Numbered from the stretch's first letter, positions 548 to 56,630 are shown. The stretch is 64,000 bases of DNA from a candidate division WOR-3 bacterium (GCA_965648905.1 CBFGIT010000011.1:1-64000); one strand, 5' to 3'. Notes: generated from the sequence alone by a model not told the origin. Made by a program: numbers and translations.

Positions 548-574
548 ATAATGCTCGCACTGGCAATGACTTAT
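548..574. promoter_or_regulatory. 27-bp TAA-N19-TTA site with IHF-like CAA-N4-TTA half, flanking 12-bp tract A
   Basis: ATAATGCTCGCACTGGCAATGACTTAT; same spacing recurs at 22835, 40172, 56289, 59321 and 62482. Confidence 0.55.
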
Positions 575-596
575 TAGCTACCTGGGTCAGGGAGAG

Positions 597-890
597 GCCG
601 TACCCCAGGTAGTATCTTGCTGTGCGGTTGAAAGCATGGTTGCGCGTGCTCTTTCTCTGGTCATGGCTCACCTGATGCCGGACGTGCTTTCTCAGGCATT
701 GTCCGAGGCTTTGTCTTGGGCAGTACCGCGCATCATGCCGCGTGCGATGTCGCGAGCAGAAAGTCGGGCGGCAGCTTGAGCAGATTGCCGGGCAGTTGTC
801 TCGGCCGGCAACTGCGCGCTCGAGTCAGTGTCTGCCTCGATGTCTGCCGCAATGTCCGGCATGGTCTTTGACGCGGTTGCTCAAACTTTC
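597..890. repeat. Degenerate 12-bp-period tandem tract A
   Basis: 12-mers from 684: gtgctttctcag gcattgtccgag gctttgtcttgg gcagtaccgcgc atcatgccgcgt gcgatgtcgcga gcagaaagtcgg gcggcagcttga gcagattgccgg gcagttgtctcg. Confidence 0.7.
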
Positions 891-1033
891 GTTCCTAAGA
901 AAAGCGGGTGTTTGACTTCGCGCGGGTGTCGTCTATGCTGTAGTCATCTCTCTCTTGATAGCTGTGACGCACAACGCCACGGAACACGCTTCTGGACTTG
1001 TACCGGTCTCAGCATACCATTTGGATAAGCGCA

Positions 1034-1570
1034 GTGTCTGATACACCAACACCGCATCTGAGCTGGACCGTTCACCGGGCCCGTGAAGCGCCGCGCCGAA
1101 CAGCCGTCGTGCTTGCGGTCATTCTCGGTTTTCTCGTTCTGACTGCGTGGTCTTTCGGGCCGTTGCTCACGCTGCTGGCCGTGGTTGTGCTCTTTGCCGC
1201 GCTGAACACTTACTTCCTGCCGGTGACCTATTCATTCACCGACTCAGGGGTCGAGATAGACAAGCGGCTTTTCCGGACACGCTATGAGTGGAAGCAGTTC
1301 CGGCGTTGGTTCCGCACCACGGGTGGCGTGGTTCTCAGCCCGTTCGCGCAGCCGAGTGGTCTTGACAGTTTTCGCGGCGTGCATCTGCTTCTGCCCCAGG
1401 ACCCCCAACCGGTCTTTGCGTACCTGGAGCGGCGTTTCGCGCCCCAGTCTGACAACCGGTTGACGCTCGAGAGCCCGAGCCCGAACGCCCGGCCGTCCGC
1501 CGGTGACGACCGGTCTACCTTGACTTCTGCACAAGGCGTCGATAACATGGACGCTAAGGAGTCTTCCTAA
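1034..1570 (+). CDS. Membrane protein with two TM helices and a PH-like (YcxB-type) C-terminal domain
   Basis: Two hydrophobic segments then Y.FTD.GV......YEW..F pattern; GTG start chosen downstream of TTGACT-16-TATGCT promoter at 912-939. Confidence 0.6.
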   Translation: MSDTPTPHLSWTVHRAREAPRRTAVVLAVILGFLVLTAWSFGPLLTLLAVVVLFAALNTYFLPVTYSFTDSGVEIDKRLFRTRYEWKQFRRWFRTTGGVVLSPFAQPSGLDSFRGVHLLLPQDPQPVFAYLERRFAPQSDNRLTLESPSPNARPSAGDDRSTLTSAQGVDNMDAKESS

Positions 1571-1572
1571 GA

Positions 1573-1812
1573 ATGAAGCCAGACCGTAAGCCAGCAAGAC
1601 CGCAGCCGCAGCCGGCCAAGCCGAAGCTGCCCAAGAAGCCGACCCGGCCGATGATTGCCCTGGGTCCGAAGAACTACATCATCATGGGAGTGGGCCTTGC
1701 CACGGTCATCGCCGGGTTCATCACGCTCTCGACCGGCTCGATCACCCTTGCGCCAATACTGCTCGTGCTCGGCTACTGCGTGCTGATTCCGGTGTCGCTG
1801 CTGGTCAAATGA
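1573..1812 (+). CDS. DUF3098-like small membrane protein
   Basis: KNYIIMGVGLATVIAGF...ITLAPILLVLGY motif; overlaps pyrR start (ATGA). Confidence 0.7.
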   Translation: MKPDRKPARPQPQPAKPKLPKKPTRPMIALGPKNYIIMGVGLATVIAGFITLSTGSITLAPILLVLGYCVLIPVSLLVK

Positions 1813-2339
1813 CCCGGCGCGTCGCGGACGAGCCGGCCGTTGCCCGACTGGTTGACCGGCTTGCCACTATGGTCGGCCCTGCGCACGTCGGCGTGCGCGG
1901 ACTGGCGCTCGTCGGTATCAAGCGCCGCGGTGTCCCCCTGGCTCATCGGATTGCCGCCCGTCTTGGCCGCGGCCGGCGCAGTACGATTCCGGTCGGCGCC
2001 ATCGACATCACCCTGTACCGCGACGACCTGAAGCTTGTGGCCGAGACGCCGATTGTCCGGGGTTCGGAAATCGGCTTTGACTTGAACGGCCGCACGGTCG
2101 TCCTCGTGGATGATGTCATCTTCACCGGCCGGACAATTCGGGCCGCGCTGACCGAGCTGCTCGACTTTGGTCGGCCGCGCGCGGTCCGGCTCGCGGTCCT
2201 CGTTGACCGGGGGCTGCGCGAGCTGCCCATTCAGCCCGATTTCGTCGGCCTGGTCCTCAAAACCCGGCCCGGCGACCTGGTCGACATCTTCCTCACCGAG
2301 ACCGACGGCCGCGAAGGAATCTACATCACGCGGCAGTGA
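1809..2339 (+). CDS. pyrR: Bifunctional pyrimidine regulatory protein/uracil phosphoribosyltransferase
   Basis: GIKRRGVPLA, IDITLYRDDL, VLVDDVIFTGRTIRAAL, DRGLRELPIQPDFVG. Confidence 0.95.
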   Translation: MTRRVADEPAVARLVDRLATMVGPAHVGVRGLALVGIKRRGVPLAHRIAARLGRGRRSTIPVGAIDITLYRDDLKLVAETPIVRGSEIGFDLNGRTVVLVDDVIFTGRTIRAALTELLDFGRPRAVRLAVLVDRGLRELPIQPDFVGLVLKTRPGDLVDIFLTETDGREGIYITRQ

Positions 2340-3292
2340 GGACACGTCTCAAGCACCTGCTCGGAATCGAGGACCTGACCCGGGCCGACATTCTGGCAAT
2401 CCTTGACCAGGCCGCAAGTTTCCGCGAAGTATTGAGTCGGCCGATTCCGGTCGTGCCGGCCCTGCGCGGCCGAACCGTGGTCAATCTCTTTTTCGAACCA
2501 TCGACCCGCACCCTGACGTCATTCCAACTGGCCGCCAGCCGGCTGAGCGCACAGTGCGTCAACTTCTCCCGCGTGGCCTCGTCGGTTGCCAAGGGCGAGA
2601 CCTTGCTTGACACCTGCCGGAACATCGAAGCGATGGGCGTTGACGGGATTGTCATCCGCCATGCTCTGCCCGGTGCCCCGCACTTCCTCGCCCGGCACAC
2701 CAGGGCTTTTGTCGTCAATGCCGGTGATGGTGCGCACGAGCATCCGACCCAGGCTCTGCTCGATGCTTTCACCTTGCGCACGCGACTCGGCGACCTTGCG
2801 GGAAAGCGGGTTCTTATCGTCGGCGATATCGCCCACTCCCGGGTCGCCCGTTCGAACATCCTTGCTTTCACGAAGCTCGGGGCCCGGGTGGCGGTCTGCG
2901 GCCCGCCGACGCTCATCCCCCGGTTCTGCGAGGAGCTGGGTTGCGAGGTTTTCTACCGGCTCGACCGGGTGCTCTATGAGGTTGATGTCGTCAACATGCT
3001 CCGGGTCCAGCTTGAGCGCATCAGCGCCTCCAGTTTTCCGACGGCACGCGAGTACCGCGAGCACTACGGCCTGACCGCGGCCCGGCTCGCACGGCTCAGG
3101 CCCGAGGTCATCATCACTCATCCGGGCCCGGTGAACTGGGGTGTGGAGATGGACTTCGAAGTATCGCACCATCCCTCGGCAGTTGTGCTTGAGCAGGTGA
3201 CGAACGGCGTTGCGGTCAGGATGGCGGTGCTGTTTCTTCTGGCCGGGGCTGAGCGGAATCCAGAAGACCGGGAGCGAAAAGATGACCATTGA
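2336..3292 (+). CDS. pyrB: Aspartate carbamoyltransferase catalytic subunit
   Basis: FFEPSTRT, NAGDGAHEHPTQALLD, GDIAHSRVARS, HPGPVNWGVE. Confidence 0.97.
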   Translation: MRTRLKHLLGIEDLTRADILAILDQAASFREVLSRPIPVVPALRGRTVVNLFFEPSTRTLTSFQLAASRLSAQCVNFSRVASSVAKGETLLDTCRNIEAMGVDGIVIRHALPGAPHFLARHTRAFVVNAGDGAHEHPTQALLDAFTLRTRLGDLAGKRVLIVGDIAHSRVARSNILAFTKLGARVAVCGPPTLIPRFCEELGCEVFYRLDRVLYEVDVVNMLRVQLERISASSFPTAREYREHYGLTAARLARLRPEVIITHPGPVNWGVEMDFEVSHHPSAVVLEQVTNGVAVRMAVLFLLAGAERNPEDRERKDDH

Positions 3293-4574
3293 GCGGTGCG
3301 AATCTGACCGACTGCTGCTTGCCGGCGGCACCGTAGTTGACCCGTGGCAGCAGGCGAGCCGGCGTTGTGATGTCCTGCTCGAGGGTGGCCTGGTCGTCAA
3401 ACTCGGAACCGGTCTGCGGGCTCGCGGCGCAGACGTGTTCGACTGCACGGGCCGCTATCTTGCGCCCGGATTCGTGGATATGCACTGCCATCTGCGCGAA
3501 CCGGGTCGGGAGGACGAAGAGACGATTGAAACTGGAACGGGCGCGGCGCTGGCCGGCGGTTTCACGCGCGTCTGTCCGATGCCCAATACTGAGCCGGCAA
3601 CCGACAACGCGGCCCAGGTCGAGTTCTTGCTCCGACGCGCGGCTCTGGCCGGGTATGCCCGGGTTCATCCGATTGGAGCCTGCACCAGAGCACGTGCTGG
3701 CAAGGAGCTGGCCGACATCGGTGAGATGGTCAGGGCTGGTGCGGTTGCCTTTTCGGACGACGGCTCAAGCATCGCCAATCCGATGGTGATGCGGCGGGCA
3801 CTCGAATACTGCAAGGCATTTGACAAGCCGGTAATCTCGCATTGCGAGGTGAATGAGCTGGTCGAGGGCCTTGCCAACGAAGGCAGGATGAGTACGAAAC
3901 TCGGGCTGGCTTCGTCACCAGACACGGCCGAGGCGGCGCAGGCAGCACGGGACATTCTGCTTGCCGAGCTGACCGGCAGCCGGTTGCACATTGCCCATGT
4001 TTCGGCTGCGGTCACGGTTGATATCATCCGCTGGGCCAAGGCCCGTGGGGTCATGGTCACGGCCGAGACCTGCCCCCACTACTTTGCCCTGACCGACGAA
4101 GCCCTGGCGACCTTTGACACCAACTTTCGGGTCAATCCACCGCTGCGCACCGAGCACGACCGCCAGGCCGTGATTTCCGGTCTTGCTGATGGCACGATTG
4201 ACGCAATCGCCACCGACCACGCCCCGCACACCCAGGTCGAAAAAGAGACCGAATGGGACAGCGCTCCTCCTGGAATCATCGGACTTGAGACCGCGTTCAG
4301 CCTTGGGTACGAACTACTGGTACTGAGCGGCGCGATGAATCTTGCCGGGCTCCTGCATCGGCTTACGGTTGCACCGGCACAAATCCTGGGGATTCCAGTG
4401 GGCCCGATTGAACCGGGCAGACCAGCCGAGCTGGTTGTTCTCGACCTTGATGCCAGGTGGGTGTGTGCGGCTGACCAGGTCCGCTCGCGTTCGTGCAACA
4501 CGCCGTTCCTCGGCCGGACCATGACCGGCCGGGTGACAGCCGCCATTATCGGTCAGACCCGGTTCAGCTTCTAG
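3282..4574 (+). CDS. pyrC: Dihydroorotase
   Basis: PGFVDMHCHLREPG, MPNTEP, VNPPLR, ATDHAPH; ATG at 3282 overlaps the pyrB end. Confidence 0.95.
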   Translation: MTIERCESDRLLLAGGTVVDPWQQASRRCDVLLEGGLVVKLGTGLRARGADVFDCTGRYLAPGFVDMHCHLREPGREDEETIETGTGAALAGGFTRVCPMPNTEPATDNAAQVEFLLRRAALAGYARVHPIGACTRARAGKELADIGEMVRAGAVAFSDDGSSIANPMVMRRALEYCKAFDKPVISHCEVNELVEGLANEGRMSTKLGLASSPDTAEAAQAARDILLAELTGSRLHIAHVSAAVTVDIIRWAKARGVMVTAETCPHYFALTDEALATFDTNFRVNPPLRTEHDRQAVISGLADGTIDAIATDHAPHTQVEKETEWDSAPPGIIGLETAFSLGYELLVLSGAMNLAGLLHRLTVAPAQILGIPVGPIEPGRPAELVVLDLDARWVCAADQVRSRSCNTPFLGRTMTGRVTAAIIGQTRFSF

Positions 4575-4700
4575 TCGCGCCCGCGGATTTACTTGACAGG
4601 ACAGGTGTTGTGCGTTAGCTTGAGTGGGGGGATGACAGAAGGATGGGCGGAAAGGGAGACGAAACCGCAGTCTGAGGGCAATGTGTGAAGTGAGAGGAAT

Positions 4701-8093: not shown

Positions 8094-8098
8094 CGCAC

Positions 8099-22459: not shown

Positions 22460-22834
22460 CCTGTCAGCGCCGCAGAAATCCGCAGCAGTTCACGCGGTCT
22501 GCGTAGTCAGAATCGCCGCCGCTGCGCAGCGCGTGGTTGCTGCCCAACATGCGGTCAGAACACCGTCTGCCCAATTGCCTTTCCACCAGCAGGCTCTCCG
22601 CCCAGGGAAGTACGGCTATACGGTTGGATACTATCGGTCGTACTATCTCCGAATCTACTGCCGGACGTAATGGCAGTAGTAGCTGCCGTACTCCCCTGGG
22701 GCATGCCCCCGGGTCTACCCGCCCATGGCCCGGGGCTAGCCCCATGGTTACTACCTTGGCAATAGTCAGGTGGTCTGTAAGCGGTACGCCCTGGTGGTGA
22801 TAGTGCCCGTTTACTTCGTGTATGCCCGCTTGGT
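22460..22834. repeat. Degenerate 12-bp-period tandem tract C
   Basis: From 22623: gttggatactat cggtcgtactat ctccgaatctac tgccggacgtaa tggcagtagtag ctgccgtactcc cctggggcatgc ccccgggtctac ... catggttactac; left boundary approximate. Confidence 0.65.
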
Positions 22835-22861
22835 CTAGCGCCGCACAGCCTGAGGAGTTAC
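22835..22861. promoter_or_regulatory. Degenerate 27-bp site bounding tract C
   Basis: Reverse complement GTAACTCCTCA-GGCTG-TGCGGCGCTAG; left arm is 10/11 identical to the 56261 site GTAACCCCTCA. Confidence 0.5.
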
Positions 22862-23047: not shown

Positions 23048-23346
23048 ATGCCCGGAAGAGTCAGAGACAACATCGACCGTCAGTTCAAGTACACGGCCAA
23101 GACCAAGCCGGAACGGATAAAGCAGACCAGCGATGACGTCCGCGAGTATGCTCTGGCCCGGCATCAGGCGCGTCAGACCGAGCTTGCGGGCTTTGAAGTC
23201 CAGGCCAAGGAGGCAATCGACAACTCCGGTATCCCCTCGGCCCTGTACGTCAGCTACCTCAACTACTGCTCGCCAAGTGGAAGGTACGCGGCCTCGACGA
23301 GGACGTAATGAGGTTCCTCCGCTTCGGGCTGATAAACGTGAAGTAG
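23048..23346 (+). pseudogene. SIRV2-type (Adnaviria) capsid-protein-like gene with internal deletion and frameshift
   Basis: AAGGA RBS and ATG 23048; frame 1 MPGRVRDNIDRQFKYTAKTKPERIK...NSGIPSALYVSYLNYC; -1 frame from 23266 reads LLAKWKVRGLDEDVMRFLRFGLINVK* (TAG 23344-23346); by-eye alignment to the SIRV2 coat protein. Confidence 0.55.
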
Positions 23347-38573: not shown

Positions 38574-39797
38574 GTGAAGCGGCCCGCGACCGCCATGTTC
38601 TGCCTGTTCGTCGCCTCGGCTGCGGCCGCGCCTGGCTGGCACCAGGTCAGCTTCCCTTTCCAGGTCAATACGGTCGCGGTGGCGAGTGACAGCGAGGCGT
38701 GGGCCGCAGGCACAGCCGCAAGCTACCTTTCCGGCTTCTTCCATTGGGACGGAGGCAACTGGACGCTCGCTGACACGTTCCGCAACCAACTGGTCTACGA
38801 CATCTGCTATGCTGGCTCCGATGTATGGGCCGTGGGTGAGCAGTTCAACTTCCCGGACGGGTGCGTGTATCGATGGAACGGCGAGCACTGGCAGCAGCAG
38901 GCCGACCCGTACGACCGCGCCCTGCAGGCGGTTGCGTTTTCCGACTCCGCGCACGGATACGCGGCGGGTGCCGCGCCGGTCACGCAACACCCGGTGGTGA
39001 AGTACGCCGACGGTGAATGGCGTCTGGACTCCGCGCTGACCACGCGGAGAATCATCTGCGGCCTTGCCTCGCCGTGGTACGGCAAGTGCTACGCGGTCGG
39101 TGACTCAGGCGCGATATTCCTCTATGACTACGGCACGTGGAAGCAGAAGACAAGCCCCACGACCCGTGTCCTGCGCCGAGTGGCGATGTGCTCGAACACC
39201 GAAGGCTGGGCCGTCGGCGACGGCGGCACCATCCTGCGCTGCTTCAAGGATTCCTGGACCCTCACGCCGTCGCCTACCACGCGCAACCTCCGCGGCCTTG
39301 CCATCGCCGGCACCGGCGACGAAGCGTGGGCGGTCGGCGACTCGGGCACGATTCTCCACTGCGTTCAGGACTCGTGGCGGCTCGACCCGTTCGTACCGGA
39401 CCCGACCGACGCGACGCTCTACACGGCTTCGTTCAACTCCGGTACCCACGGCTGGGCCTTCGGGTACAAGACCTTTGGCGCGCGCGTCGCGCTCCACTAC
39501 TACGACCCGCTCGGAACCGAAGAAGCGCCAGACGCCGAGCACCGTACTGTCCGACTGGGGACATTGGGGCCGACGCCGAACCGCGGCGCCACCATCGTCC
39601 ACGGCATGCTCAATCTGCAATCTGCAACCTGCAGTCTGCACTCTGAAGTGGTTCTGCTCGACATCTCTGGTCGTAAAGTGCTGGACCTTGAGCCCGGCCC
39701 GAACGACGTCTCCCACCTTACGCCCGGGGTGTACTTCCTGCGGTCAACTAGTGCCGGACAGCGGTCAGCGGTCGCCAAGGTCGTGCTCCAGCGTTAG
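38574..39797 (+). CDS. Secreted YCF48/BNR-like beta-propeller protein with T9SS-like tail
   Basis: Repeated WAVGD.GTIL and SPTTR.LR units. Confidence 0.8.
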   Translation: MKRPATAMFCLFVASAAAAPGWHQVSFPFQVNTVAVASDSEAWAAGTAASYLSGFFHWDGGNWTLADTFRNQLVYDICYAGSDVWAVGEQFNFPDGCVYRWNGEHWQQQADPYDRALQAVAFSDSAHGYAAGAAPVTQHPVVKYADGEWRLDSALTTRRIICGLASPWYGKCYAVGDSGAIFLYDYGTWKQKTSPTTRVLRRVAMCSNTEGWAVGDGGTILRCFKDSWTLTPSPTTRNLRGLAIAGTGDEAWAVGDSGTILHCVQDSWRLDPFVPDPTDATLYTASFNSGTHGWAFGYKTFGARVALHYYDPLGTEEAPDAEHRTVRLGTLGPTPNRGATIVHGMLNLQSATCSLHSEVVLLDISGRKVLDLEPGPNDVSHLTPGVYFLRSTSAGQRSAVAKVVLQR

Positions 39798-39898
39798 CGC
39801 CGAGGACCGACCGGCTGAACGATTGTTGTCTGGTTTTCACTGCTCATACCATCGGCTGGGACGTAAGCAGCATTCAGCTCCAAAGCTAAAGCCGGACA

Positions 39899-40146
39899 GC
39901 ACGCCGAGGCAGTCGCCGGCCTGACCGCACAGCCCCCGGGCAGACCAACTGCCTGATTGTCGGCCCGTGTCTCCGCTTGAGCGTGCGTCCGCGGCAGCGC
40001 ACAAGACCTGACCTGAAGCAGCACTCCCGGTAACGCCCGAAGAGACGTCTGCGGCATTGCGCGCGGCACGACGTCAGGCAGAAACACAACAGACGTGCCT
40101 TTGGTTGCAACACTCAAGGCATGTGCACAGAGCATATGGGAGACCG
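39899..40146. repeat. Degenerate 12-bp-period tandem tract D ending in GGGAGACCG
   Basis: From 39983: gtgcgtccgcgg cagcgcacaaga cctgacctgaag cagcactcccgg taacgcccgaag agacgtctgcgg cattgcgcgcgg cacgacgtcagg. Confidence 0.65.
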
Positions 40147-40171: not shown

Positions 40172-40198
40172 GTAACATCATCACCGGCAAGAACTTAG
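40172..40198. promoter_or_regulatory. 27-bp TAA-N19-TTA IHF-like site bounding tract D
   Basis: GTAACATCATCACCGGCAAGAACTTAG, 25 nt from GGGAGACCG. Confidence 0.6.
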
Positions 40199-40441
40199 AC
40201 CAATTCCGACCCCATCGGCCAAGTATAAGGAGTGCCATAATCATGAATCGTGCAGGCCGTCGCCTTCGCGAAACCCTTGCTGCTCGCAACTGGCCATTGG
40301 CACCTGGCCATTGGGCATTCCCGACACAAGCGGGCCGCAGATTGCCTCGGACATCAAGTACCGGCCTGCCCCAAAATTGACAGACGCCTGTGTCCGGGTG
40401 TAACATGGTGTCGGTCCATGACGGCACAAGAGGAGGCCAAA

Positions 40442-43138
40442 ATGTATCGAGCCGCTGTGTTCGCAACAATCGTAGTGCTGTCCGCTTTCCTGCCGCTTGA
40501 GGCAGCAGAGCCGGCTTACGGGCCGAGCCGAAGGGGAAGCGTCTGTCAGTTGTTGAAGCAACGCCTGCCCCCCTGGTATCCTGCCTGGCCAAGCGAGGCA
40601 ACCGGTCGAGCACGTCCGCGGTCAGGCCCGAAGGCAGAGCCGGCAGGCCGGTTCGGCGATGCGTTCATGATTGACACCGGACTGGTGCTCGGCCCGGCGA
40701 TGGGCAGCCAGCATTCGTACGGCGTAGCATCGAACGGTGAGGGTTGGTTGGTAATGTGGAATGATACCAGGGACTATTCCATGCGGACCGCACGCGTCGG
40801 GCCAGACTGCTCGCTGCGTGACACGAACGGAGTCATCATCGGCCATTCCCAGTCGTACACAACCGGCATTACCCGGGCTTTGGCCGGGACCGGGCCCGGT
40901 TTCATTGCGGTCTGGGTTGGCGGCGACCCATGGATGGGTGATGTCTGGGCCGCGCGGCTCGACTCAACCGGCAGACCGATTGATTCCTTCCTTGTCTATG
41001 AGGCAGACTTCAGGCAGCAGCAGGCAGCACTTGCTTTTGACGGCGACTCGGTCTGTCTGGTGGTCTGGTCCGCAGACGCGGGCGAGTATCTGTCCAATAT
41101 CTATGCCGCGCGGGTGACAACGAGCGGCCGCGTGCTCGACCCGGAGCCGTTCCCGGTGGCGCAGCAGCCCGACCTGGACGAATCCGGCCCTGCAGTCGCG
41201 TACGGCAACGGGGTATTTCTTGTGGCGTGGCAGCAGTTCGACACGGTCAACTACGAGGCTCATGTCAAGGCAATCCGGGTCTCGCGCTCCGGCACTCTGC
41301 TCGACACTGCCTTCTTCCTGCATCGCGACCCTGGGATGATGCAGGCCTACCCGGCCCTCGCCTTCGGCGACACCTGTTTCCTTGCGACCTGGGCCGAGGG
41401 TTGGGATGAGCCGGACGTGTACGCGGCCCGGGTCACTGGGTCCGGCCGCATACTTGACCCGGAAGGCGTGCGGCTGAGCAACACCACCAACTACGACCTG
41501 TTCCCGTCCGCAGCCTTCGACGGCAACCGTTACCTTGTCGCCTGGACCGAGCTGGACTGGACCAGCGACCAGGTCGAGCTGCGCGCTCGGCGTGTGACCA
41601 CAGCCGGTGTACCCCTTGACTCCGGACTCATCCGGGTGTCAGTCGGCGGCCGCATGTGTTTCTTCCCCAGCGTGGCTGCGGACCGTGCGAACTACCTTAT
41701 CGGTTTCGACACTGAGGACACGCTGACCGGTGACGGTGACGTCTGCTGTGCGCGCATCAACTTCTCCGGCGTGGTCCTTGACACCGGCCTGCTCCTGCCC
41801 CTGGGCGGACAGGAGCAGTTCGGCCCGCGTGGAGCTTTTGACGGCGAGAACTTCCTCGCGGCGTGGCTGGAGTCGAGCAAAGACGGCTATCGGATTGAAG
41901 GCGCCCGGGTGCGTCCGGACCGCACGGTGCTTGACCCAACCGGGTTTGCGGTCTGCGATGCGGCCGGATACAAGTACAGTCTCGCGGCCGGGACTGCGGA
42001 CTCACTCATGCTCGTCGCGTGGGCCGACCAGCGGAATGGCGAAGACGACATCTACTGCGCCCGGGTGACGCGCGACGGCAGGTCGCTTGACCTGGACGGC
42101 ATCGTGGTCTGTGACGAAATGGGCTACGAGGGAACACCCGGCGTCGGGTCTGACGGCTCGAACTTTCTTGTCGTCTGGCAGGACTATCGGAATGGGTGGG
42201 ACTACGACATCTACGCGGCCCGGATCAGACCTGATGGAACCGTACTCGACCCGGACGGGTTCGCGGTCACGGCCGACACCAACAACGCAACCAATCCGGC
42301 TGTCAGCTTCACGGGCAGCAACTATTTAGTGGTCTGGGAAGAATCGAATCAGACAACCTGGGAAACGGATATCTACGGTGCGCTTGTCAGCCCGGCCGGG
42401 ACGATTACCAGACCGCGATTCCCTGTTAGCGTCGGAAACGGTGACCGGCGGATGCCGACCGTCGCCCGCGGGCCGGACAACCTGCTTGTTGCGTGGCAGG
42501 ACAGTCGCATCTCCGGCGGAAGCGACATCTACGCGACCCGGATGCGGCCCGACGGCACCGTGCTCGACCCGAACGGCCGCCGGATCGCCTGGACCAGCTA
42601 CTACGAAGAGATGCCGCGCGCGGTGTTCAGCAACGGCAACTTCCTTCTGCTCTGGCGATGCTCGGGCACGGACACCGCGTTCGTTGCCGGTGCTGAAGTG
42701 GACACGGCCGGCAACGTCGTGCGTCGGTTTGAACTTACGGACCTGCCGCCGATGTACGGGTTCGATGTGGTGGCAGGGACCGGTTCGGAACCGCTGCTCC
42801 TGTTCGACTGCTGGACCGACACCGCGTACGGCCGGACGTACGACAACCAGCGGGTCTGGGGCAGATTCGGCCCGTTCATCGGCCTGGCCGAAGCCCCTGC
42901 GCCGCACGCCATGCGTCGCCCGCCCGGCCCGACCATCCTCCGCGGTATCCTCAATCTGCAATCTGCAACTTGCAATCTGCACTCTGAAACGGTCCTGCTC
43001 GACATCTCTGGTCGGAAGGTGCTCGACCTCGCGCCCGGTCCGAACGACGTGTCGCGCCTTGCAGCCGGTGTCTATTTCCTCGACACACCGGGATCCGAAA
43101 GGCCATCACCAACTGGCAAAGTGGTAATACTAGAATGA
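40442..43138 (+). CDS. Large secreted repeat protein (P.VAFDG.N.LVVW.D.R...DIY.ARV...G.VLDP.G repeats) with T9SS-like tail
   Basis: GAGGAGG RBS, signal peptide, about 13 repeats; paralog of 44552..47131. Confidence 0.8.
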   Translation: MYRAAVFATIVVLSAFLPLEAAEPAYGPSRRGSVCQLLKQRLPPWYPAWPSEATGRARPRSGPKAEPAGRFGDAFMIDTGLVLGPAMGSQHSYGVASNGEGWLVMWNDTRDYSMRTARVGPDCSLRDTNGVIIGHSQSYTTGITRALAGTGPGFIAVWVGGDPWMGDVWAARLDSTGRPIDSFLVYEADFRQQQAALAFDGDSVCLVVWSADAGEYLSNIYAARVTTSGRVLDPEPFPVAQQPDLDESGPAVAYGNGVFLVAWQQFDTVNYEAHVKAIRVSRSGTLLDTAFFLHRDPGMMQAYPALAFGDTCFLATWAEGWDEPDVYAARVTGSGRILDPEGVRLSNTTNYDLFPSAAFDGNRYLVAWTELDWTSDQVELRARRVTTAGVPLDSGLIRVSVGGRMCFFPSVAADRANYLIGFDTEDTLTGDGDVCCARINFSGVVLDTGLLLPLGGQEQFGPRGAFDGENFLAAWLESSKDGYRIEGARVRPDRTVLDPTGFAVCDAAGYKYSLAAGTADSLMLVAWADQRNGEDDIYCARVTRDGRSLDLDGIVVCDEMGYEGTPGVGSDGSNFLVVWQDYRNGWDYDIYAARIRPDGTVLDPDGFAVTADTNNATNPAVSFTGSNYLVVWEESNQTTWETDIYGALVSPAGTITRPRFPVSVGNGDRRMPTVARGPDNLLVAWQDSRISGGSDIYATRMRPDGTVLDPNGRRIAWTSYYEEMPRAVFSNGNFLLLWRCSGTDTAFVAGAEVDTAGNVVRRFELTDLPPMYGFDVVAGTGSEPLLLFDCWTDTAYGRTYDNQRVWGRFGPFIGLAEAPAPHAMRRPPGPTILRGILNLQSATCNLHSETVLLDISGRKVLDLAPGPNDVSRLAAGVYFLDTPGSERPSPTGKVVILE

Positions 43139-50120: not shown

Positions 50121-50277
50121 GGTTGTTTCAGAGTATCTCCACATAGGCCGGCCAGGTCAATTCCGGCGTGCGCTTGACAACCGGCCTGACCCGGCTACAA
50201 TAGAGCAACGGTGAGGGCATCTATCTCCCATTCGTCAATGTCTGAAAACGAACTGCCTCGGCAGAAGGAAGCGACCG

Positions 50278-51336: not shown

Positions 51337-51340
51337 GTAT

Positions 51341-51580
51341 ATGGATGATTCGACCCGGGACCTTGTGCGCAAGGTGCTTGACGAGCAGGTTCGCCCGAAC
51401 CTGCAGATGGACGGCGGCGACGTCGAACTCGTCAGCGTGGGCGACGACGGGGTAGTTCAGTTGCGATTGACCGGTGCGTGCTCGGGCTGCCCGTTTTCCG
51501 CGCTGACCATGGCGGTCAGCGTCGAGCGCGTCCTCAAGGAGAAAGTTCCGGGCGTCGTGCGGGTTCAGCCCGTGCCCTAG
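51341..51580 (+). CDS. NifU/NfuA-family Fe-S scaffold
   Basis: VRPNLQMDGGDVEL, LTGACSGCP. Confidence 0.92.
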   Translation: MDDSTRDLVRKVLDEQVRPNLQMDGGDVELVSVGDDGVVQLRLTGACSGCPFSALTMAVSVERVLKEKVPGVVRVQPVP

Positions 51581-51606
51581 GGGCGTCGAGCCGCGCACGA
51601 AACCGT

Positions 51607-52335
51607 CTAGCGGCCTTGGGCCAGTCGGTCGGCCAGGTTCTGAGGCAGGCCGGCGGCTCGCATCTTCTTCTGAACCGACACAATGTCATACTCAACTCGA
51701 TGGAACGAGAGCGTGCTGGTTCGTGAGTTGTAGATGACGGCGCTGGCGCGCGGGTCTCCGTCCCGGGGCTGGCCCACGCTGCCGACATTGACTAGGTATC
51801 GGGCTTCAGGCTTGAGTTCAAAGCTGTCTGCGATGACAAGCTGTGCCCGCTGACCAGGCAGCCGCTCGACCGCAAATGGGTGGTGCGAGTGGCCGACCAG
51901 GCAGACCCGGTCCGGGTAGTAGTCCATTTCCTCTTCGGCCTCAGCCAGACTCAGAAGATAGACCCACTCTTCGGGCTCGGACGGCGAGGCGTGGACGATG
52001 AGCATCGGGTCGAGCCGTTCGGCAAGCGGCAGATTCTCCAGGTAGACCCGGTTGACCGCGCTCAGTTTCTCCCGAGTCCAGAGCACCGCCGCGGCCGCGC
52101 TGTCGTTGAATGCCCGAATTGAGGTCTTCCCGACCACGCCGTAGTCATGATTGCCCGCAACGCAGACCGTGTGCAGACTCCGAATCGTCTCGATGCAGCG
52201 ATTCGGGTCCGGGCCATAGCCGACGATGTCGCCGCAGCAGACATACCTCGTCACGCCCCGGTCCTTCATCAACGCCAGCACCGCTTCCAGGGCAGCAAGA
52301 TTCCCGTGGATGTCGGAGAGGATGCCGGTCTTCAT
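51607..52335 (-). CDS. Metallophosphoesterase
   Basis: SDIHGN, GDIVGYG, GNHD, GHSH, NVGSVGQPRDG. Confidence 0.92.
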   Translation of the reverse strand: MKTGILSDIHGNLAALEAVLALMKDRGVTRYVCCGDIVGYGPDPNRCIETIRSLHTVCVAGNHDYGVVGKTSIRAFNDSAAAAVLWTREKLSAVNRVYLENLPLAERLDPMLIVHASPSEPEEWVYLLSLAEAEEEMDYYPDRVCLVGHSHHPFAVERLPGQRAQLVIADSFELKPEARYLVNVGSVGQPRDGDPRASAVIYNSRTSTLSFHRVEYDIVSVQKKMRAAGLPQNLADRLAQGR

Positions 52336-52754
52336 TCGGCCCCCTGCTCTTTGCCCAGTTCGTGCAGCACGCCGTCGAGCACACCGTTGACGAACCGGCC
52401 GGCCTCGTCGTCACCGAACTTCTTGGCGATGTCTACCGCCTCGTTGATCGTCACCTTGGGCGGCACGTCGGCGAAGTAGAGCAGCTCGGCTGCAGCAACT
52501 CGGAGAATCGCCCGGTCGACGACGGTCAGCCGCTCCAGACGCCAGCGCCGCAGGTGCCGCCGCAGGATCGTGTCAATCTCCTGCTGGGAAGTCTGCACCG
52601 CGGCCACCAGCCGACGCAGGTAGCTCTCGGCATCGTCCGATGGATTCTTGCGCGCGACGATTTCCTCAATAGTTGAATCCGGGTCGTCGGCAACCAGGTC
52701 GAGGCGGTACATCACCTCGAGTGCGCACTCACGGGCCAGACGACGATTGGTCAT
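52332..52754 (-). CDS. nusB: Transcription antitermination factor NusB
   Basis: RRLARE, DRAILR, INEAVDIAKKFG, FVNGVLD. Confidence 0.95.
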   Translation of the reverse strand: MTNRRLARECALEVMYRLDLVADDPDSTIEEIVARKNPSDDAESYLRRLVAAVQTSQQEIDTILRRHLRRWRLERLTVVDRAILRVAAAELLYFADVPPKVTINEAVDIAKKFGDDEAGRFVNGVLDGVLHELGKEQGAE

Positions 52755-52783
52755 GCCACCCCTTTCAGTCCTGGAAGTTGCTG

Positions 52784-53251
52784 CTAGTCGACGTCCTGCG
52801 CGGCCAGGTCGGCCATCTCGATTGCCGACAGGGTCGCGGTCCAGCCCTTATTGCCGGCTTTGGCCCCGGCCCGCTCCAACGCCTGTTCGAGCGTCTCCGC
52901 AGTGATGATGCCGAAACTCGTCGGTACGCCGGTGTCGAGCGAAACCCGGGCCAGTCCTTTGGCGACCTCGGCCGAGATGTATTCGGCATGGGGCGTGTCG
53001 CCGCGAATCACCGCGCCCAGACCGATGATTGCCTGGTACTTCCTGGTGCGGGCGGCACGAAGTGCGACCAGCGGTATCTCGTAAGCGCCCGGGACCCAGA
53101 TGACGTCGGCCGCGGCCGCGTGGTGCCGCTCGAGACAGTCCCGAGCACCGTCGAGCAACTGCCGGCTGATAAGCTCGTTGAAACGTGACACCACGAGGCA
53201 GAACTTCCTGCCCTGGGCACTAAGCATGCCTTTGAACTCACGGGTTTCCAT
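52784..53251 (-). CDS. ribH: 6,7-dimethyl-8-ribityllumazine synthase
   Basis: SRFN, VPGAYEIP, GAVIRGDTPH, GNKG. Confidence 0.96.
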   Translation of the reverse strand: METREFKGMLSAQGRKFCLVVSRFNELISRQLLDGARDCLERHHAAAADVIWVPGAYEIPLVALRAARTRKYQAIIGLGAVIRGDTPHAEYISAEVAKGLARVSLDTGVPTSFGIITAETLEQALERAGAKAGNKGWTATLSAIEMADLAAQDVD

Positions 53252-54527
53252 TTGCTACTCCTTTTGCCCGGCCGCGGCCGGCTGCCGGTCGCCCGAGCTC
53301 GGCCTCAAGGTCGCCGAGCAGGTGCCCGAGCCGGTCGCGCTTGGTAACCAGGTACTTGATGTTCTTCCTGTTCGGGCGCACAATTATCGGCACCCGTTCG
53401 ACAATGTCCAGTCCGAACCCGCGCAACCCGACAAGCTTGCGCGGGTTGTTGGTGAGCAGTCTGATGCTTGAGAGCCCGAGGTCAGATAGAATCTGCGCCC
53501 CGATGCCGTAATCGCGCAGGTCCGGCTCAAACCCAAGCGCAACATTGGCCTGCACCGTGTCCAGGCCTCTGTCCTGCAGGGCATAGGCCTTGAGCTTGTT
53601 GGCCAGGCCGATGCCCCGGCCTTCCTGGCGCATGTAGAGGATGACCCCAAGGCCGGCGCGCGCAATCATCGCCATCGAACGGGCCAGTTGTGCGCCGCAA
53701 TCGCAGCGCAGGGAATGAAACACGTCCCCGGTCAGGCACTGCGAATGGACCCGCACCAGCACGCGCTCCTGTCCACGCACCTCGCCCCGGATGAGCGCGA
53801 GGTGAGCGTAAGGCTCGACTACGTCTTCGTAGACAACGACCCGGAACTCCCCGAATTCGGTCGGCAATGTGGTCTCGACCACCGGCCGGACCAGCTTCTC
53901 CTGGCGGCGTCGAAACTCAATCAGGTCCCGGACCGCAACCATCTTCAGCCCGAACCGGCGGCTCAACCGCTCCAGCGCCCCGAGTCGAGCCATGCTGCCG
54001 TTATCGGCCATCACCTCACACAACACCCCGGCTGGTTTGAGTCCGGCAAGCCGCGCCAGGTCGACCGCGGCCTCGGTGTGTCCGGCCCGAACCAGCACCC
54101 CGCCGTCCTTGGCGACAAGCGGGAAAACATGGCCGGGCCGCGCCAGGTCCGAGGGCTCTGTCTTCGGGTCAACCAACGCTCGAATCGTTGCGGCCCGGTC
54201 ATGAGCCGAGATTCCGGTTGTTGTGCCCTGGACCGCATCAACCGACACCGTAAACGCCGTGCCGTGCAACGCCGTGTTCTCGCCCGCCTGGGCTTTGAGC
54301 CCAAGCGCAGCACAACGGTCAGCAGTCAGGGCCACGCAGATAAGACCCCGACCATACCGGGCCATGAAGTTGACCTTGGCCGGTGTCACCTTCTCGGCCG
54401 CACCGACCAGGTCGCCCTCATTCTCCCGGGCCTCGTCATCGACCACAACAATCAACCGTCCCCGACGCAGGTCCTGGAGTGCATCCTCAATCCGGGCGAA
54501 CCGGACCGCTCTCTTCTTACCGGCCAC
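53238..54527 (-). CDS. ribBA: Bifunctional DHBP synthase/GTP cyclohydrolase II
   Basis: DDEARENEGDL, RAGHTEA, RVHSQCLTGD, RCDCG, QEGRGIGL, LLTNNP; GTG start at 54527 approximate. Confidence 0.95.
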   Translation of the reverse strand: MAGKKRAVRFARIEDALQDLRRGRLIVVVDDEARENEGDLVGAAEKVTPAKVNFMARYGRGLICVALTADRCAALGLKAQAGENTALHGTAFTVSVDAVQGTTTGISAHDRAATIRALVDPKTEPSDLARPGHVFPLVAKDGGVLVRAGHTEAAVDLARLAGLKPAGVLCEVMADNGSMARLGALERLSRRFGLKMVAVRDLIEFRRRQEKLVRPVVETTLPTEFGEFRVVVYEDVVEPYAHLALIRGEVRGQERVLVRVHSQCLTGDVFHSLRCDCGAQLARSMAMIARAGLGVILYMRQEGRGIGLANKLKAYALQDRGLDTVQANVALGFEPDLRDYGIGAQILSDLGLSSIRLLTNNPRKLVGLRGFGLDIVERVPIIVRPNRKNIKYLVTKRDRLGHLLGDLEAELGRPAAGRGRAKGVANGNP

Positions 54528-55575
54528 GACTGGAGCCCTTCCCTCTGGCCCGAGCGCCGAGGGTCTGTTCGTACCATCGATGGTAGAAATCCTGATAGGC
54601 CTTGCGCCGCCTGATTCTCTGCCACCAGGGTCTGTTGGCCTCATACCACTCGAGCGTGGCAACCAGGCCCTTGTCGAACCGGGTCCTCGCCTGCCAGCCC
54701 AGTACCCGGGCAGCCTTGCGCATATCGCAGACCAGCCGGGCAACATGGCCGGGCCGGTCCTTGACATGCTGGACAAGTCCAGCCGGCCGGCCCAGGTAAC
54801 GGACGATTTCGCGGGCAATCTGCAGTGAACTCCGCTCCTCGCCTGAGCCGATATTGAAAACCTCACCCACGACCTTCCGGGCCGGTGCTTCAGCCGCAAG
54901 CCGCACTGCCCGGCACAGGTCGGCCACGTATGTCCAGTCGCGCGTGTTCCGGCCCGAGCCGTAGACGTAGAGCGGCCGGTTCTCCAGTGCGCTGGTGAAG
55001 AAGAACGGAATAACCTTTTCCGGGTACTGATTCGGGCCATAGGCGTTGAACGGTCGCAGGATTGTGATGGGCAGGTTGTAGGTGTGATAGTAGGCCTGGC
55101 AGAGCCGGTCAGCCCCGGCCTTGGTTGCGGCGTACGGGCTCTGTGGCTCAATCGGGTGAGCTTCGCTCATCGGCACGGTGCGGGCCGAGCCGTAAACCTC
55201 GCAGGTCGAAATCTGCACGAACCGGTCGCCGGGATTGCGCCGGAACTCGTCGAGCAGCACCCAGGTTCCGACAAAATCGGTCCGGACAAACGGTGCGACG
55301 TCGTCAATCGATCGGTCGATGTGGGTCTCGGCAACAAAGTTGACGACCAGGTCCACGCCCCGCAGCGCGGCCCGCACCGCGGCCCGGTTGCAGACGTCGG
55401 CCCGCACAAACTCAAACCGCGGGTTCTGCCAGCAGTCGGCAGGGAAGTTGTCGAGATTACCGCAATACGTCAGCTTGTCCAGGACCCGCACCTGCCAGCC
55501 CGGCTCGCCGAGCAACAGTCGGACGAAGTTCGAGCCGATGAACCCGGCTCCACCGGTAACCAGCGCTTTCGGCAT
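54517..55575 (-). CDS. rfbB: dTDP-glucose 4,6-dehydratase
   Basis: TGGAGFIGSNF, DKLTY, AETHIDRSI, SPYAATKA, YGPNQYPEK, DRPGH. Confidence 0.93.
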   Translation of the reverse strand: MPKALVTGGAGFIGSNFVRLLLGEPGWQVRVLDKLTYCGNLDNFPADCWQNPRFEFVRADVCNRAAVRAALRGVDLVVNFVAETHIDRSIDDVAPFVRTDFVGTWVLLDEFRRNPGDRFVQISTCEVYGSARTVPMSEAHPIEPQSPYAATKAGADRLCQAYYHTYNLPITILRPFNAYGPNQYPEKVIPFFFTSALENRPLYVYGSGRNTRDWTYVADLCRAVRLAAEAPARKVVGEVFNIGSGEERSSLQIAREIVRYLGRPAGLVQHVKDRPGHVARLVCDMRKAARVLGWQARTRFDKGLVATLEWYEANRPWWQRIRRRKAYQDFYHRWYEQTLGARARGKGSSRGR

Positions 55576-56030
55576 CAGCCCTCTCTGATTCGCCAGTCGT
55601 AAGGGATTGCCGGGTCGTCCGGCGCACGGCGGAACTCGTCCGGCTGGTCGTGGTTGTAGACCTCGGTCGGGCAGTTGACCATGTACGCCGGCTCGGTGCC
55701 GACTCCTTTCATGCCGTGCAGCACGCCCGGCGGGATGCGGATGAGCATCGGGTTCTGCTCGCCGATGAAAAACTCCTGGACCTCGCCGTGGGTCGGCGAG
55801 TCGGCCCGGTCGTCGTAGAGCACAACCTTGGCCATCCCCTTGACGATGGCAAAGCAGTCGGTCTGCACCTTGTGGTAATGCCAGCCTTTGACCACACCCG
55901 GATAGACGACTGACAAGTACACCTGGCCGAACTTCTCGAACAGCTCGTCGTCTGAACGCAGGATTTCCATTACCGCGCCGCGCTCGTCCGGGATGATGCG
56001 AAGCGGCTTGGTCTGAACGCCCTTAATCAT
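55575..56030 (-). CDS. rfbC: dTDP-4-dehydrorhamnose 3,5-epimerase
   Basis: DERG, VVKGWHYH, D.R.DSPT.G, IPPGVLHG. Confidence 0.9.
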   Translation of the reverse strand: MIKGVQTKPLRIIPDERGAVMEILRSDDELFEKFGQVYLSVVYPGVVKGWHYHKVQTDCFAIVKGMAKVVLYDDRADSPTHGEVQEFFIGEQNPMLIRIPPGVLHGMKGVGTEPAYMVNCPTEVYNHDQPDEFRRAPDDPAIPYDWRIREG

Positions 56031-56260
56031 GGCGGCCAAGTATACCCGGACTGAGCGCAGATTCAAGATTCGCCTGCCCAGGTTAGCGCAGTACAGTGAC
56101 CGCAATCGCGGCTGCAGGCCGGCCCCACCGCGGTCTCGCCGGTGTGCGACATCATTCTGCCTTCCGGGTCGTGGGTTCTGATTTCCGGCTTCGCTTGGCT
56201 GCTCAACCGGCCCGAGCATGCCCAGACAGTTCGGCATCAAGGCACTGGTTTACACATATT

Positions 56261-56315
56261 GTAACCCCTCAACAACCGGCGGTTCAGCCTAACAATTTGG
56301 CGCACTGTGACTTAG
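56261..56315. promoter_or_regulatory. Two tandem 27-bp IHF-like sites bounding tract B
   Basis: GTAACCCCTCAACAACCGGCGGTTCAG and CTAACAATTTGGCGCACTGTGACTTAG; the latter is 25 nt from CGGTCTCCC. Confidence 0.6.
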
Positions 56316-56340
56316 TTCACTACCGCATTTTACTGGGGTA

Positions 56341-56630
56341 CGGTCTCCCTTGCCACTTGGAGCGCCGTTCTGCTCGTCGCAAGGAGAGCGGTTCGGCCGG
56401 CCCCGGTCGGCGTCGCTCGGGCCGACGCTTGCCCTGGCGTTCTCCCTGCCGCGGTGACTATCCCCGTGCCGGTCGCTCTGGTCCTGGCTCGGGTCTTGGC
56501 CGGCTGCGTCGCTCCGACCTGCGCTCGGGTTTCGGCTCTGACTGCGGCTCTGGTCGTGGTTCCGGTCGCGGTTGGCACCGCCGTCTGTCTCGCTGCTTCA
56601 GGTACTACGCCGCACTGTGAATCGCCGGTC
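56341..56630. repeat. Degenerate 12-bp-period tandem tract B
   Basis: In register from 56342; for example cgctctggtcct ggctcgggtctt ggccggctgcgt cgctccgacctg cgctcgggtttc ggctctgactgc ggctctggtcgt ggttccggtcgc. Confidence 0.78.

Follow-up and report, generated by a model that had tools for sequence, protein, structure and literature searches.

The nucleocapsids of Adnaviria (SIRV2, SSRV1, AFV1 and SFV1) are built from dimers of capsid proteins that wrap A-form double-stranded DNA. These viruses infect archaea, and their capsid proteins coat the whole linear genome without a sequence code. The asymmetric unit of SFV1 is reported to consist of one capsid heterodimer and 12 bp of A-form DNA, and the same report speaks of "similar asymmetric units" in SIRV2 and AFV1 (PMC6105669). 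Phased direct repeats of fixed period, situated beside the gene for a small dimeric DNA-binding protein, are found in the parC/ParR system, in which ParR coats its repeats cooperatively. The parC iteron unit is 11 bp long; ten near-identical units form one site per replicon, which works with a partition NTPase. In plasmid R1, parC is described as two sets of five-fold iterons, each of which is bound by ParR (PMC2241845). Multi-copy, intergenic and modular repeats that break assemblies and vary between close relatives are represented by REP/BIME and BOX elements and by MITEs. Their hallmarks are palindromic hairpins or terminal inverted repeats, and we know of none described with a strict 12-bp phase across unrelated sequence families. 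CRISPR arrays, finally, are non-coding and carry a terminal leader.

Here, we describe tracts of phased 12-bp units in the chromosome of an uncultured candidate division WOR-3 bacterium that share features with each of these systems. The genome encodes proteins related in sequence and fold to the Adnaviria capsid proteins, and the pairing of paralogs within a single operon is reminiscent of lipothrixvirus heterodimers; the tract period equals the 12 bp that an SFV1 dimer covers in the structural report (PMC6105669), a match that could be coincidence. Unlike those of Adnaviria, these genes are bacterial and chromosomal, and the proposed DNA partner is a set of about 90 short phased tracks. The resemblance to parC lies in the phased repeats and in the neighboring gene for a small protein whose dimerization and DNA binding are proposed here, whereas the tracts have about 21 degenerate units at about 90 sites per chromosome, most of them far from a capsid-like gene, and no association with a partition gene was noticed. 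They share with REP/BIME elements, BOX elements and MITEs the multi-copy, intergenic and modular character, and with CRISPR arrays the non-coding, leader-bearing layout; in contrast to CRISPR arrays, their degenerate 12-bp units are stacked without conserved repeat-spacer alternation, as a sequence-only reading of this DNA had maintained.

The window that was analyzed is the whole 64-kb stretch of DNA, positions 1-64000. Its four proposed tracts (A to D) each exceed all 2000 triplet-preserving shuffles in a 12-nt column statistic calculated per tract (0/2000 each), and the 12-bp periodicity is confirmed. This shuffle had been named beforehand as the decisive control. The window was also scanned with a 144-nt sliding window for harmonics of 12, with period 3 excluded and the maximum of a triplet-block-shuffled null, 8.98, as the threshold. 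Exactly four regions rise above it: 601-840, 22615-22794, 39847-40086 and 56335-56622. The features of the four copies are as follows.

550..574, plus strand: leader motif of copy A in the relaxed form AAT-N16-ACTTAT, described earlier as a TAA-N19-TTA site and aligned with the other family-0 copies
590..605, minus strand: box of copy A, GGGTACGGCCTCTCCC, read on the minus strand and common to several families
613..840, no strand assigned: core of tract A, 19 phased 12-bp units; family 0, with 28 members; earlier limits 597-890
22615..22794, no strand assigned: core of tract B, 15 units; family 8; earlier limits 22460-22834
22837..22861, plus strand: relaxed motif of copy B, AGC-N16-AGTTAC, aimed at the capsid-like gene and away from tract B
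23048..23346, plus strand: broken Adnaviria-capsid-like gene, just downstream of tract B
39847..40074, no strand assigned: core of tract C, 19 units; singleton family; earlier limits 39899-40146
40138..40146, minus strand: 9-mer of copy C, CGGTCTCCC
40174..40198, plus strand: motif of copy C, AAC-N16-ACTTAG, aimed away from the tract at a gene starting near 40244
56230..56640, plus strand: copy D, whole element, with 15-16 paralogous copies at 73-84% identity
56291..56315, plus strand: leader motif of copy D, AAC-N16-ACTTAG, aimed into tract D
56335..56598, no strand assigned: core of tract D, 22 units; family 1; earlier limits 56341-56630
56336..56349, plus strand: box of copy D, GGGTACGGTCTCCC, which includes the 9-mer CGGTCTCCC

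The segmented cores fall at the same four places as the earlier limits and are somewhat shorter or shifted: in tract B the 12-nt signal is weaker across 22460-22614, and the core of tract C begins 52 nt to the left of its earlier limit. TAA-N19-TTA sites, which had been assigned to all four copies, are present at 549-573, 40173-40197 and 56290-56314; the site of copy B reads TAG-N19-TTA (22836-22860). The 9-mer CGGTCTCCC does stand at equal distances from the site in copies D (56341-56349, plus strand) and C (40138-40146, minus strand), with a count of 26 nt rather than 25, and the CCGTACCCC of copy A is part of the box of copies C and D in the opposite orientation, within 590-605. Tandem Repeats Finder detects 12-nt repeats in just two short stretches (829-856 and 56475-56500), with 2.2-2.3 copies. 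The four tracts are not copies of one sequence; they belong to families of 28 (A), 15 (D) and 2 (B) members and a singleton (C). The second member of the tract B family lies on contig C15, upstream of an intact capsid-like paralog, and tract C is flanked by two T9SS cargo genes.

Extending the 12-nt scan to the entire genome yielded 101 regions above the null maximum, of which 91 look non-coding and 88 of those are intergenic. A to D are members of a dispersed non-coding element, as had been proposed, with about 90 tracts scattered through the genome. The tracts occupy about 0.74% of the genome, and the roughly 88 intergenic ones compare with 446 intergenic gaps of at least 300 bp, or roughly a fifth. 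By sequence, they group into families of 28, 15, 12 and 10 copies, followed by smaller families and singletons. No 7-mer is common to the flanks of all families, the enrichments there being family-specific. Tract length has a median of 21 units, an interquartile range of 19-23 and a maximum of 28 (86 tracts from unrelated families). T9SS cargo genes are neighbors of 31 of the 91 tracts, a modest enrichment over the 101 of 446 long gaps, and tracts show no polarity relative to these genes. Homologs of one neighboring protein carry the name candidate division WOR-3. The sequence-only reading knew of no named feature of this kind, and literature searches, including searches on 12-bp periodicity, gave no such report.

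The genome carries 13 paralogs of the Adnaviria capsid fold. The six best matches of a profile of these paralogs to PDB sequences are all Adnaviria capsid chains, in the order 6wq0 (5.5e-5), 6d5f, 3j9x, 5w7g, 3fbz and 3f2e. The Pfam families Sulf_coat_C and SFV1_VP4 match 4 and 2 of the 13, respectively, with a best score of 24.0 bits, which is under the curated 25.2. A predicted model (pLDDT 90.5) contains helices at residues 8-18, 21-60, 64-83, 86-102 and 107-118, in line with the long N-terminal helix and the C-terminal helical bundle of solved capsid proteins, and its six best Foldseek matches are Adnaviria capsids (3fbz, 6wq0, 3j9x, 6d5f) with TM scores of 0.56-0.63 and probabilities of 0.99-1.00, at E-values of only 0.04-0.14. 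As judged from the profiles and the predicted structure, the linked proteins are homologous to the Adnaviria capsid fold. One of the paralogs carries an XRE-type HTH domain, in a fusion that relatives also keep. The copy in the window is broken: relative to its 76%-identical paralog on C15, a 67-bp deletion after position 23269 shifts the frame. A search of 31 genomes of the order gave 2-39 matches to the family in each, and an alignment of the subfamily linked to tract B found no relative in a viral contig collection.

The genes and the tracts are linked by position. Tract B lies directly upstream of a capsid-like paralog, and a tract ends within 600 bp upstream of 6 of the 13 paralogs (chance 0.019 per gene, binomial 7e-8). 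In other genomes, a tract lies within 1.2 kb upstream of 4 of 40 paralogs and downstream of 5 of 40, where we estimate an expectation of about 1/40 per side from tract density; 31 of the 40 have none within that distance. Seen from the tracts, just 5 of 91 adjoin a capsid-like gene, and the adjacency holds for tract B and not for A, C, D or most others. The capsid-like family is present in 30 of 30 sampled genomes of the order, compared with 0 of 121 belonging to the phylum's other orders. In 863 kb from four genomes that have the family there are 18 tracts, and in 1263 kb from six that lack it there are 3, all 3 inside stop-free frames of 161-469 codons. The gene family and the tracts co-occur only in this order among the genomes sampled, and since this pattern concerns a single clade it amounts in effect to one evolutionary event.

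We tentatively favor the explanation that the tracts are docking tracks for these bacterial relatives of the Adnaviria major capsid protein, which are predicted to bind the tracts with one dimer per unit. On this view, each tract is a non-coding, polar cis-element in which about 21 12-bp units lie head to tail, and its sequence would encode a track for about 21 capsid-like dimers. Their assembly would be nucleated at the leader end, perhaps by the XRE-type HTH-capsid fusion paralog. The product would be a short nucleoprotein filament that marks or insulates its piece of the chromosome. The role in protein loading suggested earlier becomes plausible through an order-specific capsid-like family linked by position and by the number 12, with the binding itself a prediction.

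Three alternatives were weighed, the first of which concerns the leader. Many tracts are preceded by a polar leader, AAC-N16-AsTTAG, then by a GGGnnACGG..CCC box. A genome-wide search for AAC-N16-A[CG]TTA[GT] returned 47 matches. Although 43 of them fall between genes, just 3 have a co-directional gene within the next 150 bp. Periodic DNA is found downstream of 23 of the 47 matches and upstream of 3, and 21 of the 23 matches within 150 bp of a tract point towards it, which bears out the claim of a polar element; 17 of these 21 stand 20-37 bp from the tract (families 1 and 3 and three singleton families). ECF promoters have an AAC -35 element, a spacer of about 16-17 nt and a short -10 element, and the layout of the leader, with AAC, a 16-nt spacer and a G/C-TT element, resembles them. 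The leader looks more like such a bipartite promoter of the sigma-70 family (ECF-type), or an operator, than like the IHF-like site it had been taken for; the IHF consensus, WATCAANNNNTTR, is matched by none of the four sites and has a single match in the window, at 62495, where 0.41 are expected.

The tracts could, on this basis, be genes for non-coding RNAs of about 300 nt, transcribed from the leader as an ECF-type promoter served by a sigma factor from the capsid-like operon; an ECF-type sigma gene is indeed flanked by two capsid-like genes, and a tract stands upstream of their operon. The 12-nt rhythm would then act in the RNA, which might serve an RNA-binding protein as scaffold or sponge, and the strong strand asymmetry of composition in some families would agree with this, although skews vary by family and follow no universal rule. 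Because double-stranded RNA and RNA:DNA hybrids are A-form, the capsid-like proteins could be the RNA partner, and this explanation overlaps with the docking-track reading rather than excluding it. Several observations nevertheless make it unlikely. Rfam 15 has no match at gathering score in the 64-kb window, and a consensus fold of nine family-1 copies has a weak covariation term of -2.7 kcal/mol, with 4 of 103 pairs compensatory. Sigma-70 -10-like hexamers show no inward bias near tracts (43 inward and 56 outward of 182 flanks), and family alignments contain no conserved terminator at distal tract ends. Relative to the tract, the box can stand in either orientation, which would entail complementary RNAs; the 28 copies of family 0, including A, bear only the relaxed motif; and the polarity fails in copy C, whose motif points away from the tract towards the next gene. 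The promoter-like polar leader itself suits transcription at least as well as it does the docking-track reading.

A second alternative bears on the origin of the periodicity. The tracts may be selfish or neutral interspersed repeats, MITE-like or BOX-like, that carry an old, decayed 12-bp minisatellite. The rhythm would then be a relic of slippage, and chance or hitch-hiking would account for the link to capsid-like genes. Multi-copy families have 10-28 copies at 73-88% identity, the unit consensus differs from family to family, and 12 of the 91 tracts are situated no more than 500 bp from a contig end, in zones that make up 2% of the genome. Congeneric genomes also differ in which syntenic sites carry a tract; A and B are absent from the corresponding sites of a congeneric genome, indicating turnover like that of mobile DNA. 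The sole internal indel of the family-1 tract is exactly 12 nt, or one unit.

Within families 1 and 3, however, paralogs conserve exactly the phase-defining positions, unlike the prediction of neutral decay. Variability among paralogs tracks position within the 12-bp unit (0/5000 permutations for family 1, 34/5000 for family 3), an effect specific to period 12 in that periods 11 and 13 do not reproduce it (1314-2721 of 3000), and is anti-correlated with information content (-0.51 and -0.45, respectively). This reference-based test covers families 1 and 3 only; it replaced a family-wide test on gap-stripped alignments, which lose register at indels and gave no significant result (207, 963, 173, 1579 and 1809 of 2000). 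On the favored explanation, selection keeps unit phase rather than unit sequence. In addition, unrelated families share the period, the length of 19-23 units, the box and the leader; tracts persist in relatives of 31-63% GC from four sampled families of the order; and no transposase, terminal inverted repeats or target duplications appear in the family alignments examined. We consider an origin as neutral or selfish repeats improbable.

The weakest alternative holds that the tracts encode small proteins with tetrapeptide repeats (in family 1, for example, an Arg/Gly/Ser-rich basic peptide), some copies being pseudogenes. ORFs of at least 100 codons cover at least 80% of 72 of the 101 regions, and gene callers are for this reason likely to lay false ORFs over tracts. 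Such proteins are very improbable: although a family-1 frame with the codons GGT CTC CCT stays free of stops in 6 of 11 copies and variability in this family also has a period-3 component (5/3000), no frame is open across its paralogs (every frame is stopped in 4-9 of 11 copies, the best in 5), family 3 has no period-3 pattern (1184/3000) and reads ACG or AAG for its candidate ATG in 4 of 9 copies, the encoded peptides differ wholly between families, codon usage departs from that of genes (91 of the 101 regions score under the 5th percentile of genes; best-of-six-frames median -0.045, against 0.245 for pieces of long genes), and nine tracts of relatives with 31-49% GC are so full of stops that stop-free frames cover just 0-104 codons. 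Tetrapeptide-repeat ORFs under purifying selection were looked for and not found, synonymous/non-synonymous counts in family 1 being at most 0.54, and the earlier statement that the tracts share no consistent ORF stands.

The favored explanation, that the tracts are docking tracks for capsid-like dimers, faces further considerations of its own. The units are not dyad-symmetric (self-reverse-complement correlation 0.45 versus a null of 0.44; palindromic pairs 1.18 versus 1.21), which fits a symmetric homodimer poorly, so heterodimers or a polar binding mode would be needed. A GGCWWGCC core, an impression gained from a low-GC relative, did not generalize to this genome. Moreover, viral capsid proteins coat DNA without sequence preference, and a sequence-encoded track is therefore not predicted by the viral precedent.

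In a wider reading, which we regard as possible but doubtful, one bacterial order uses a virus-capsid fold to build a chromatin-like system. Capsid-like paralogs would form heterodimers that polymerize on about 90 tracks of about 21 units, starting at a leader that is recognized by the HTH-capsid fusion or read by the ECF sigma factor of the operon. Each stretch of about 250 bp would take the form of a short A-form nucleoprotein solenoid and in this way switch or insulate neighboring genes. The capsids of archaeal filamentous viruses could have arisen from this cellular system, or the system could have descended from them by domestication. Literature searches found no published report of the pairing of such tracts with capsid-like genes. 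If docking on the tracts occurs as proposed, it would represent a previously undescribed way to mark a bacterial chromosome, by tracks of defined length in which the register of a protein filament, and not a binding sequence, is encoded. A fold so far associated with a realm of archaeal viruses would also have its first cellular home, in bacteria, which would bear on the origin of the viral capsids.

The four intergenic tracts of 12-bp period (A to D) that a sequence-only reading had picked out in the window proved to be real. When 12-mers were stacked and the departure from uniform composition was scored by column, the period-12 statistic of each tract exceeded that of every shuffle (0/2000 in all four), the control being a permutation of whole triplets that preserves any codon-like period 3. 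Fourier power lay at 12 for A and B and at the harmonics 6, 4, 3 and 2 for C and D. The periodicity extends genome-wide: a sliding scan (144-nt window, harmonics of 12 summed with period 3 left out), calibrated on a triplet-block-shuffled contig with a null maximum of 8.98, placed 101 regions of the 3.01-Mb source genome above that maximum. Within the window it marked exactly four regions, 601-840, 22615-22794, 39847-40086 and 56335-56622, and thus the earlier reading had neither missed a tract there nor listed a false one.

Tract D belongs to a 15-copy family. Of 11 members compared, between 4 and 9 have stops in any given one of the six reading frames, and the values for synonymous/non-synonymous codon differences do not rise above 0.54. 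When codon usage was scored with 982 long ORFs as the training set, the median for tracts, taking the best of six frames, is -0.045 vs 0.245 for 250-nt gene pieces. Ten of the 101 regions were gene-like by this score and were excluded as probable coding repeats, leaving 91 tracts, 88 of which overlap none of the 2084 called genes. At least 80% of the length of 72 of the 101 regions nevertheless lies under an ORF of at least 100 codons, and gene callers will therefore be misled. The initial view that the tracts share no consistent ORF thus stands, and we regard a coding role as very improbable, less likely than either a loading track or a role at the RNA level. Neither a tandem-repeat search nor the stacked units revealed CRISPR-like structure, in agreement with the same reading, and the tracts match no Rfam family. 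The consensus fold of nine D-family copies is almost devoid of covariation (term -2.7 kcal/mol; 4 of 103 pairs compensatory).

All-against-all blastn left 22 of the 101 regions as singletons and grouped the others in families of 28, 15, 12, 10, 4, 3, 3, 2 and 2 copies. Tract A is a member of the 28-copy family, B of a 2-copy family and C a singleton; members of the D family are 73-84% identical across ~400 bp. The unit consensus varies from family to family, and the architecture is common to them. Tract length is narrow, with a median of 21 units, an interquartile range of 19-23 and a range of 12-28 among the 86 tracts away from contig ends, the lower limit of 12 units being imposed by the scan window; for 12 of the 91, the nearest contig end is no more than 500 bp away.

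Two motifs recur near tracts. The identical 9-mer CGGTCTCCC, described earlier in two oppositely oriented copies at equal spacing from a flanking site, is indeed found at 56341 (+) and 40138 (-) at the same distance from that site. This 9-mer and its variant at A are portions of a larger box, GG[AG][AT]ACGG[CT][CT]N0-3[CT]CC, with 49 matches genome-wide. A zone making up 1.1% of the genome, the tracts themselves and the 60 bp beside their edges, contains 21 of them; these are spread over six families, and both orientations are seen. The flanking site, proposed as TAA-N19-TTA, is present in that form at 549-573, 40173-40197 and 56290-56314, but B carries TAG-N19-TTA at 22836-22860. It is better described as a leader motif, AAC-N16-A[CG]TTA[GT], which matches the genome 47 times, 43 of them intergenic, and a reversed-sequence control 35 times. 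Twenty-three matches are no further than 150 bp from a tract, and A and B have the motif in relaxed forms only. Over 240 nt on either side of the motif, downstream sequence is strongly periodic in 23/47 cases and upstream sequence in 3/47. The suggested polarity of the element is borne out for 21 of the 23 tract-linked motifs, which are directed into the tract (17 of the 21 at 20-37 bp) and come from families 1 and 3 and from three singleton families; copy C is one of the exceptions, its motif facing the next gene. The IHF consensus is matched at none of the four sites, and the designation IHF-like is not supported.

Several other features were observed near the tracts. An unusually AT-rich segment upstream of A (window 460-520) contains six -10-like hexamers on the strand reading into the tract. 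An imperfect palindrome with TTACA/TGTAA arms, GGTTTACA-N4-TTGTAACC, lies ~90 bp upstream of D (window 56247-56266), is kept in 8 of nine aligned D-family copies, and looks like an operator or promoter. The usual leader is replaced by a near-perfect 22-bp palindrome, CATGATAGTAATTACTATCATG, upstream of three tracts of A's family that lie outside the window, on contigs C49, C6 and C43. Tract C is flanked by two T9SS cargo genes, near whose 3' ends the 7-bp repeat CAATCTG occurs in five tandem copies (39611-39645 and 42952-42986); genome-wide, 248 of 2084 called genes (12%) terminate in a T9SS sorting domain, as judged by a C-terminal-domain profile.

Turnover of the tracts between species is rapid. 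The counterpart of D's site by synteny in a congeneric genome (fetched stretch L131, 4711-5030) holds a 12-bp tract of an unrelated, A/C-rich sequence family; the right end of that tract carries a related box, GGGAACGGCCTCCC, and synteny stops at the tract. The sites syntenic with A and B lack a tract, and the genes neighbouring C have no orthologues there.

A functionless repeat, such as a decaying minisatellite, would be one account of such arrays. Paralog variability per unit position was measured in families 1 and 3, which align best, with the register taken from a reference copy. Variability changes with unit position in both (family 1, 0/5000 permutations; family 3, 34/5000), and reaches its minimum at the most informative positions of the unit motif (r = -0.51 and -0.45, respectively). 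The dependence is seen at period 12 (0/3000 and 22/3000) and not at periods 11 and 13 (1314-2721 of 3000), with harmonics at 6 and 3 in family 1 and none in family 3. A cruder test on gap-stripped alignments gave no significant result in any of five families (1 to 4 and 6). The sole internal indel in a family-1 tract is exactly 12 nt, and relatives of 31-49% GC also have tracts, as islands richer in GC with many stops. Taken together, phase-position variability, the 12-nt indel and these stop-rich tracts speak for a constrained phase and against a decaying minisatellite. A functionless repeat is improbable, less so than a coding role but behind a loading track or an RNA-level role.

The candidate partner of the tracts is a family of capsid-like proteins, one of whose genes lies beside tract B:

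23048-23346: broken capsid-like gene, immediately downstream of tract B, found by HMM search

Compared with a paralog on contig C15 that is 76% identical and also lies downstream of a tract, this gene has a 67-bp deletion after 23269, beyond which the conserved C-terminal part (AKWKVRGLDEDV...) continues in a different frame; either the gene is a pseudogene or the assembly is wrong here. Iterated HMM searching across all ORFs identified 13 paralogs in the genome. Against PDB sequences, the six best matches to their profile are Adnaviria capsid chains (SSRV1 6wq0 at 5.5e-5, then SFV1, SIRV2, AFV1 twice and SIRV-YNP), and Pfam Sulf_coat_C matches 4 of the 13, with scores below its curated cut-off. 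The AlphaFold model of the intact C15 paralog (pLDDT 90.5) retrieved the same viral proteins as its six best Foldseek matches (TM 0.56-0.63, probability 0.99-1.00), with E-values of only 0.04-0.14. In one paralog an XRE-type HTH is fused to the N-terminus, an arrangement retained in relatives, and some relatives of ~245-258 aa (library entries P0042, P0051, P0052, P0056 and others) are fused dimers with two capsid-like domains in tandem. A minus-strand operon (L012; C10, 71278-77959) with a 12-bp tract upstream encodes a capsid-like protein at either end and, in this order between them, an ECF-type sigma factor, an HPr-domain protein and an unknown protein of 111 aa. The family comprises 1289 clusters at E <= 0.001 in a 1.84-billion-protein library, and its named close homologues are from candidate division WOR-3, all annotated "hypothetical".

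Tracts and capsid-like genes are linked. Upstream of six of the 13 paralogs, a tract ends no more than 600 bp away, one tract being common to two of these genes; with a chance of 0.019 per gene, the binomial probability is 7e-8. Among 40 paralogs sampled from 20 other genomes of the order, a tract lies within 1.2 kb upstream in 4 (two loci being cut off upstream) and downstream in 5, the expectation estimated from tract density in fetched stretches being ~1/40 per side. The enrichment is real, yet adjacency is far from the rule. The family is present in all 31 genomes of the order that were searched, the source genome included, and in a phylum-wide sample in 30 of 151 genomes, all 30 of this order and 0/121 elsewhere. 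Fetched stretches from four genomes with the family held 18 tracts in 863 kb; those from six without it held 3 regions in 1263 kb, all within stop-free frames of 161-469 codons. The 9 regions in a genome of 63% GC also lie under long stop-free frames, where the stop criterion alone does not establish non-coding status. This phyletic pattern agrees with a gene-tract link; co-occurrence is confined to a single clade and therefore counts as one event.

Viral capsid proteins do not require a sequence code, a point against a simple docking track, as are the rapid turnover of the tracts between species and the 12 tracts at contig ends. According to PMC6105669, the asymmetric unit of SFV1 is one capsid heterodimer with 12 bp of A-form DNA, and those of SIRV2 and AFV1 are called similar. 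The present system thus resembles Adnaviria nucleocapsids in protein fold and 12-bp step, but those are viral, archaeal and not sequence-coded, and the ICTV profile lists archaeal hosts only. It resembles iteron centromeres such as parC/ParR (PMC2241845) in having phased repeats next to the binder's gene, but these have few identical units at one site. Literature searches returned no report of bacterial homologues of the Adnaviria capsid fold or of 12-bp phased intergenic arrays, in keeping with the earlier remark that no named feature is like this one.

Also against a simple docking track, the tracts may be transcribed, as their polar leader, which resembles a promoter, and the gene for an ECF sigma factor suggest. 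A role at the RNA level, which overlaps with a loading track, is possible, if rather doubtful. The best-supported reading, advanced here tentatively at somewhat short of even chances, is that the tracts are a sequence-phased loading track for capsid-like dimers. A further point against a simple docking track is that the units in the source genome are not palindromic, so that a homodimer with twofold symmetry does not suggest itself as their reader; as a conjecture, heterodimers of paired paralogs would fit.
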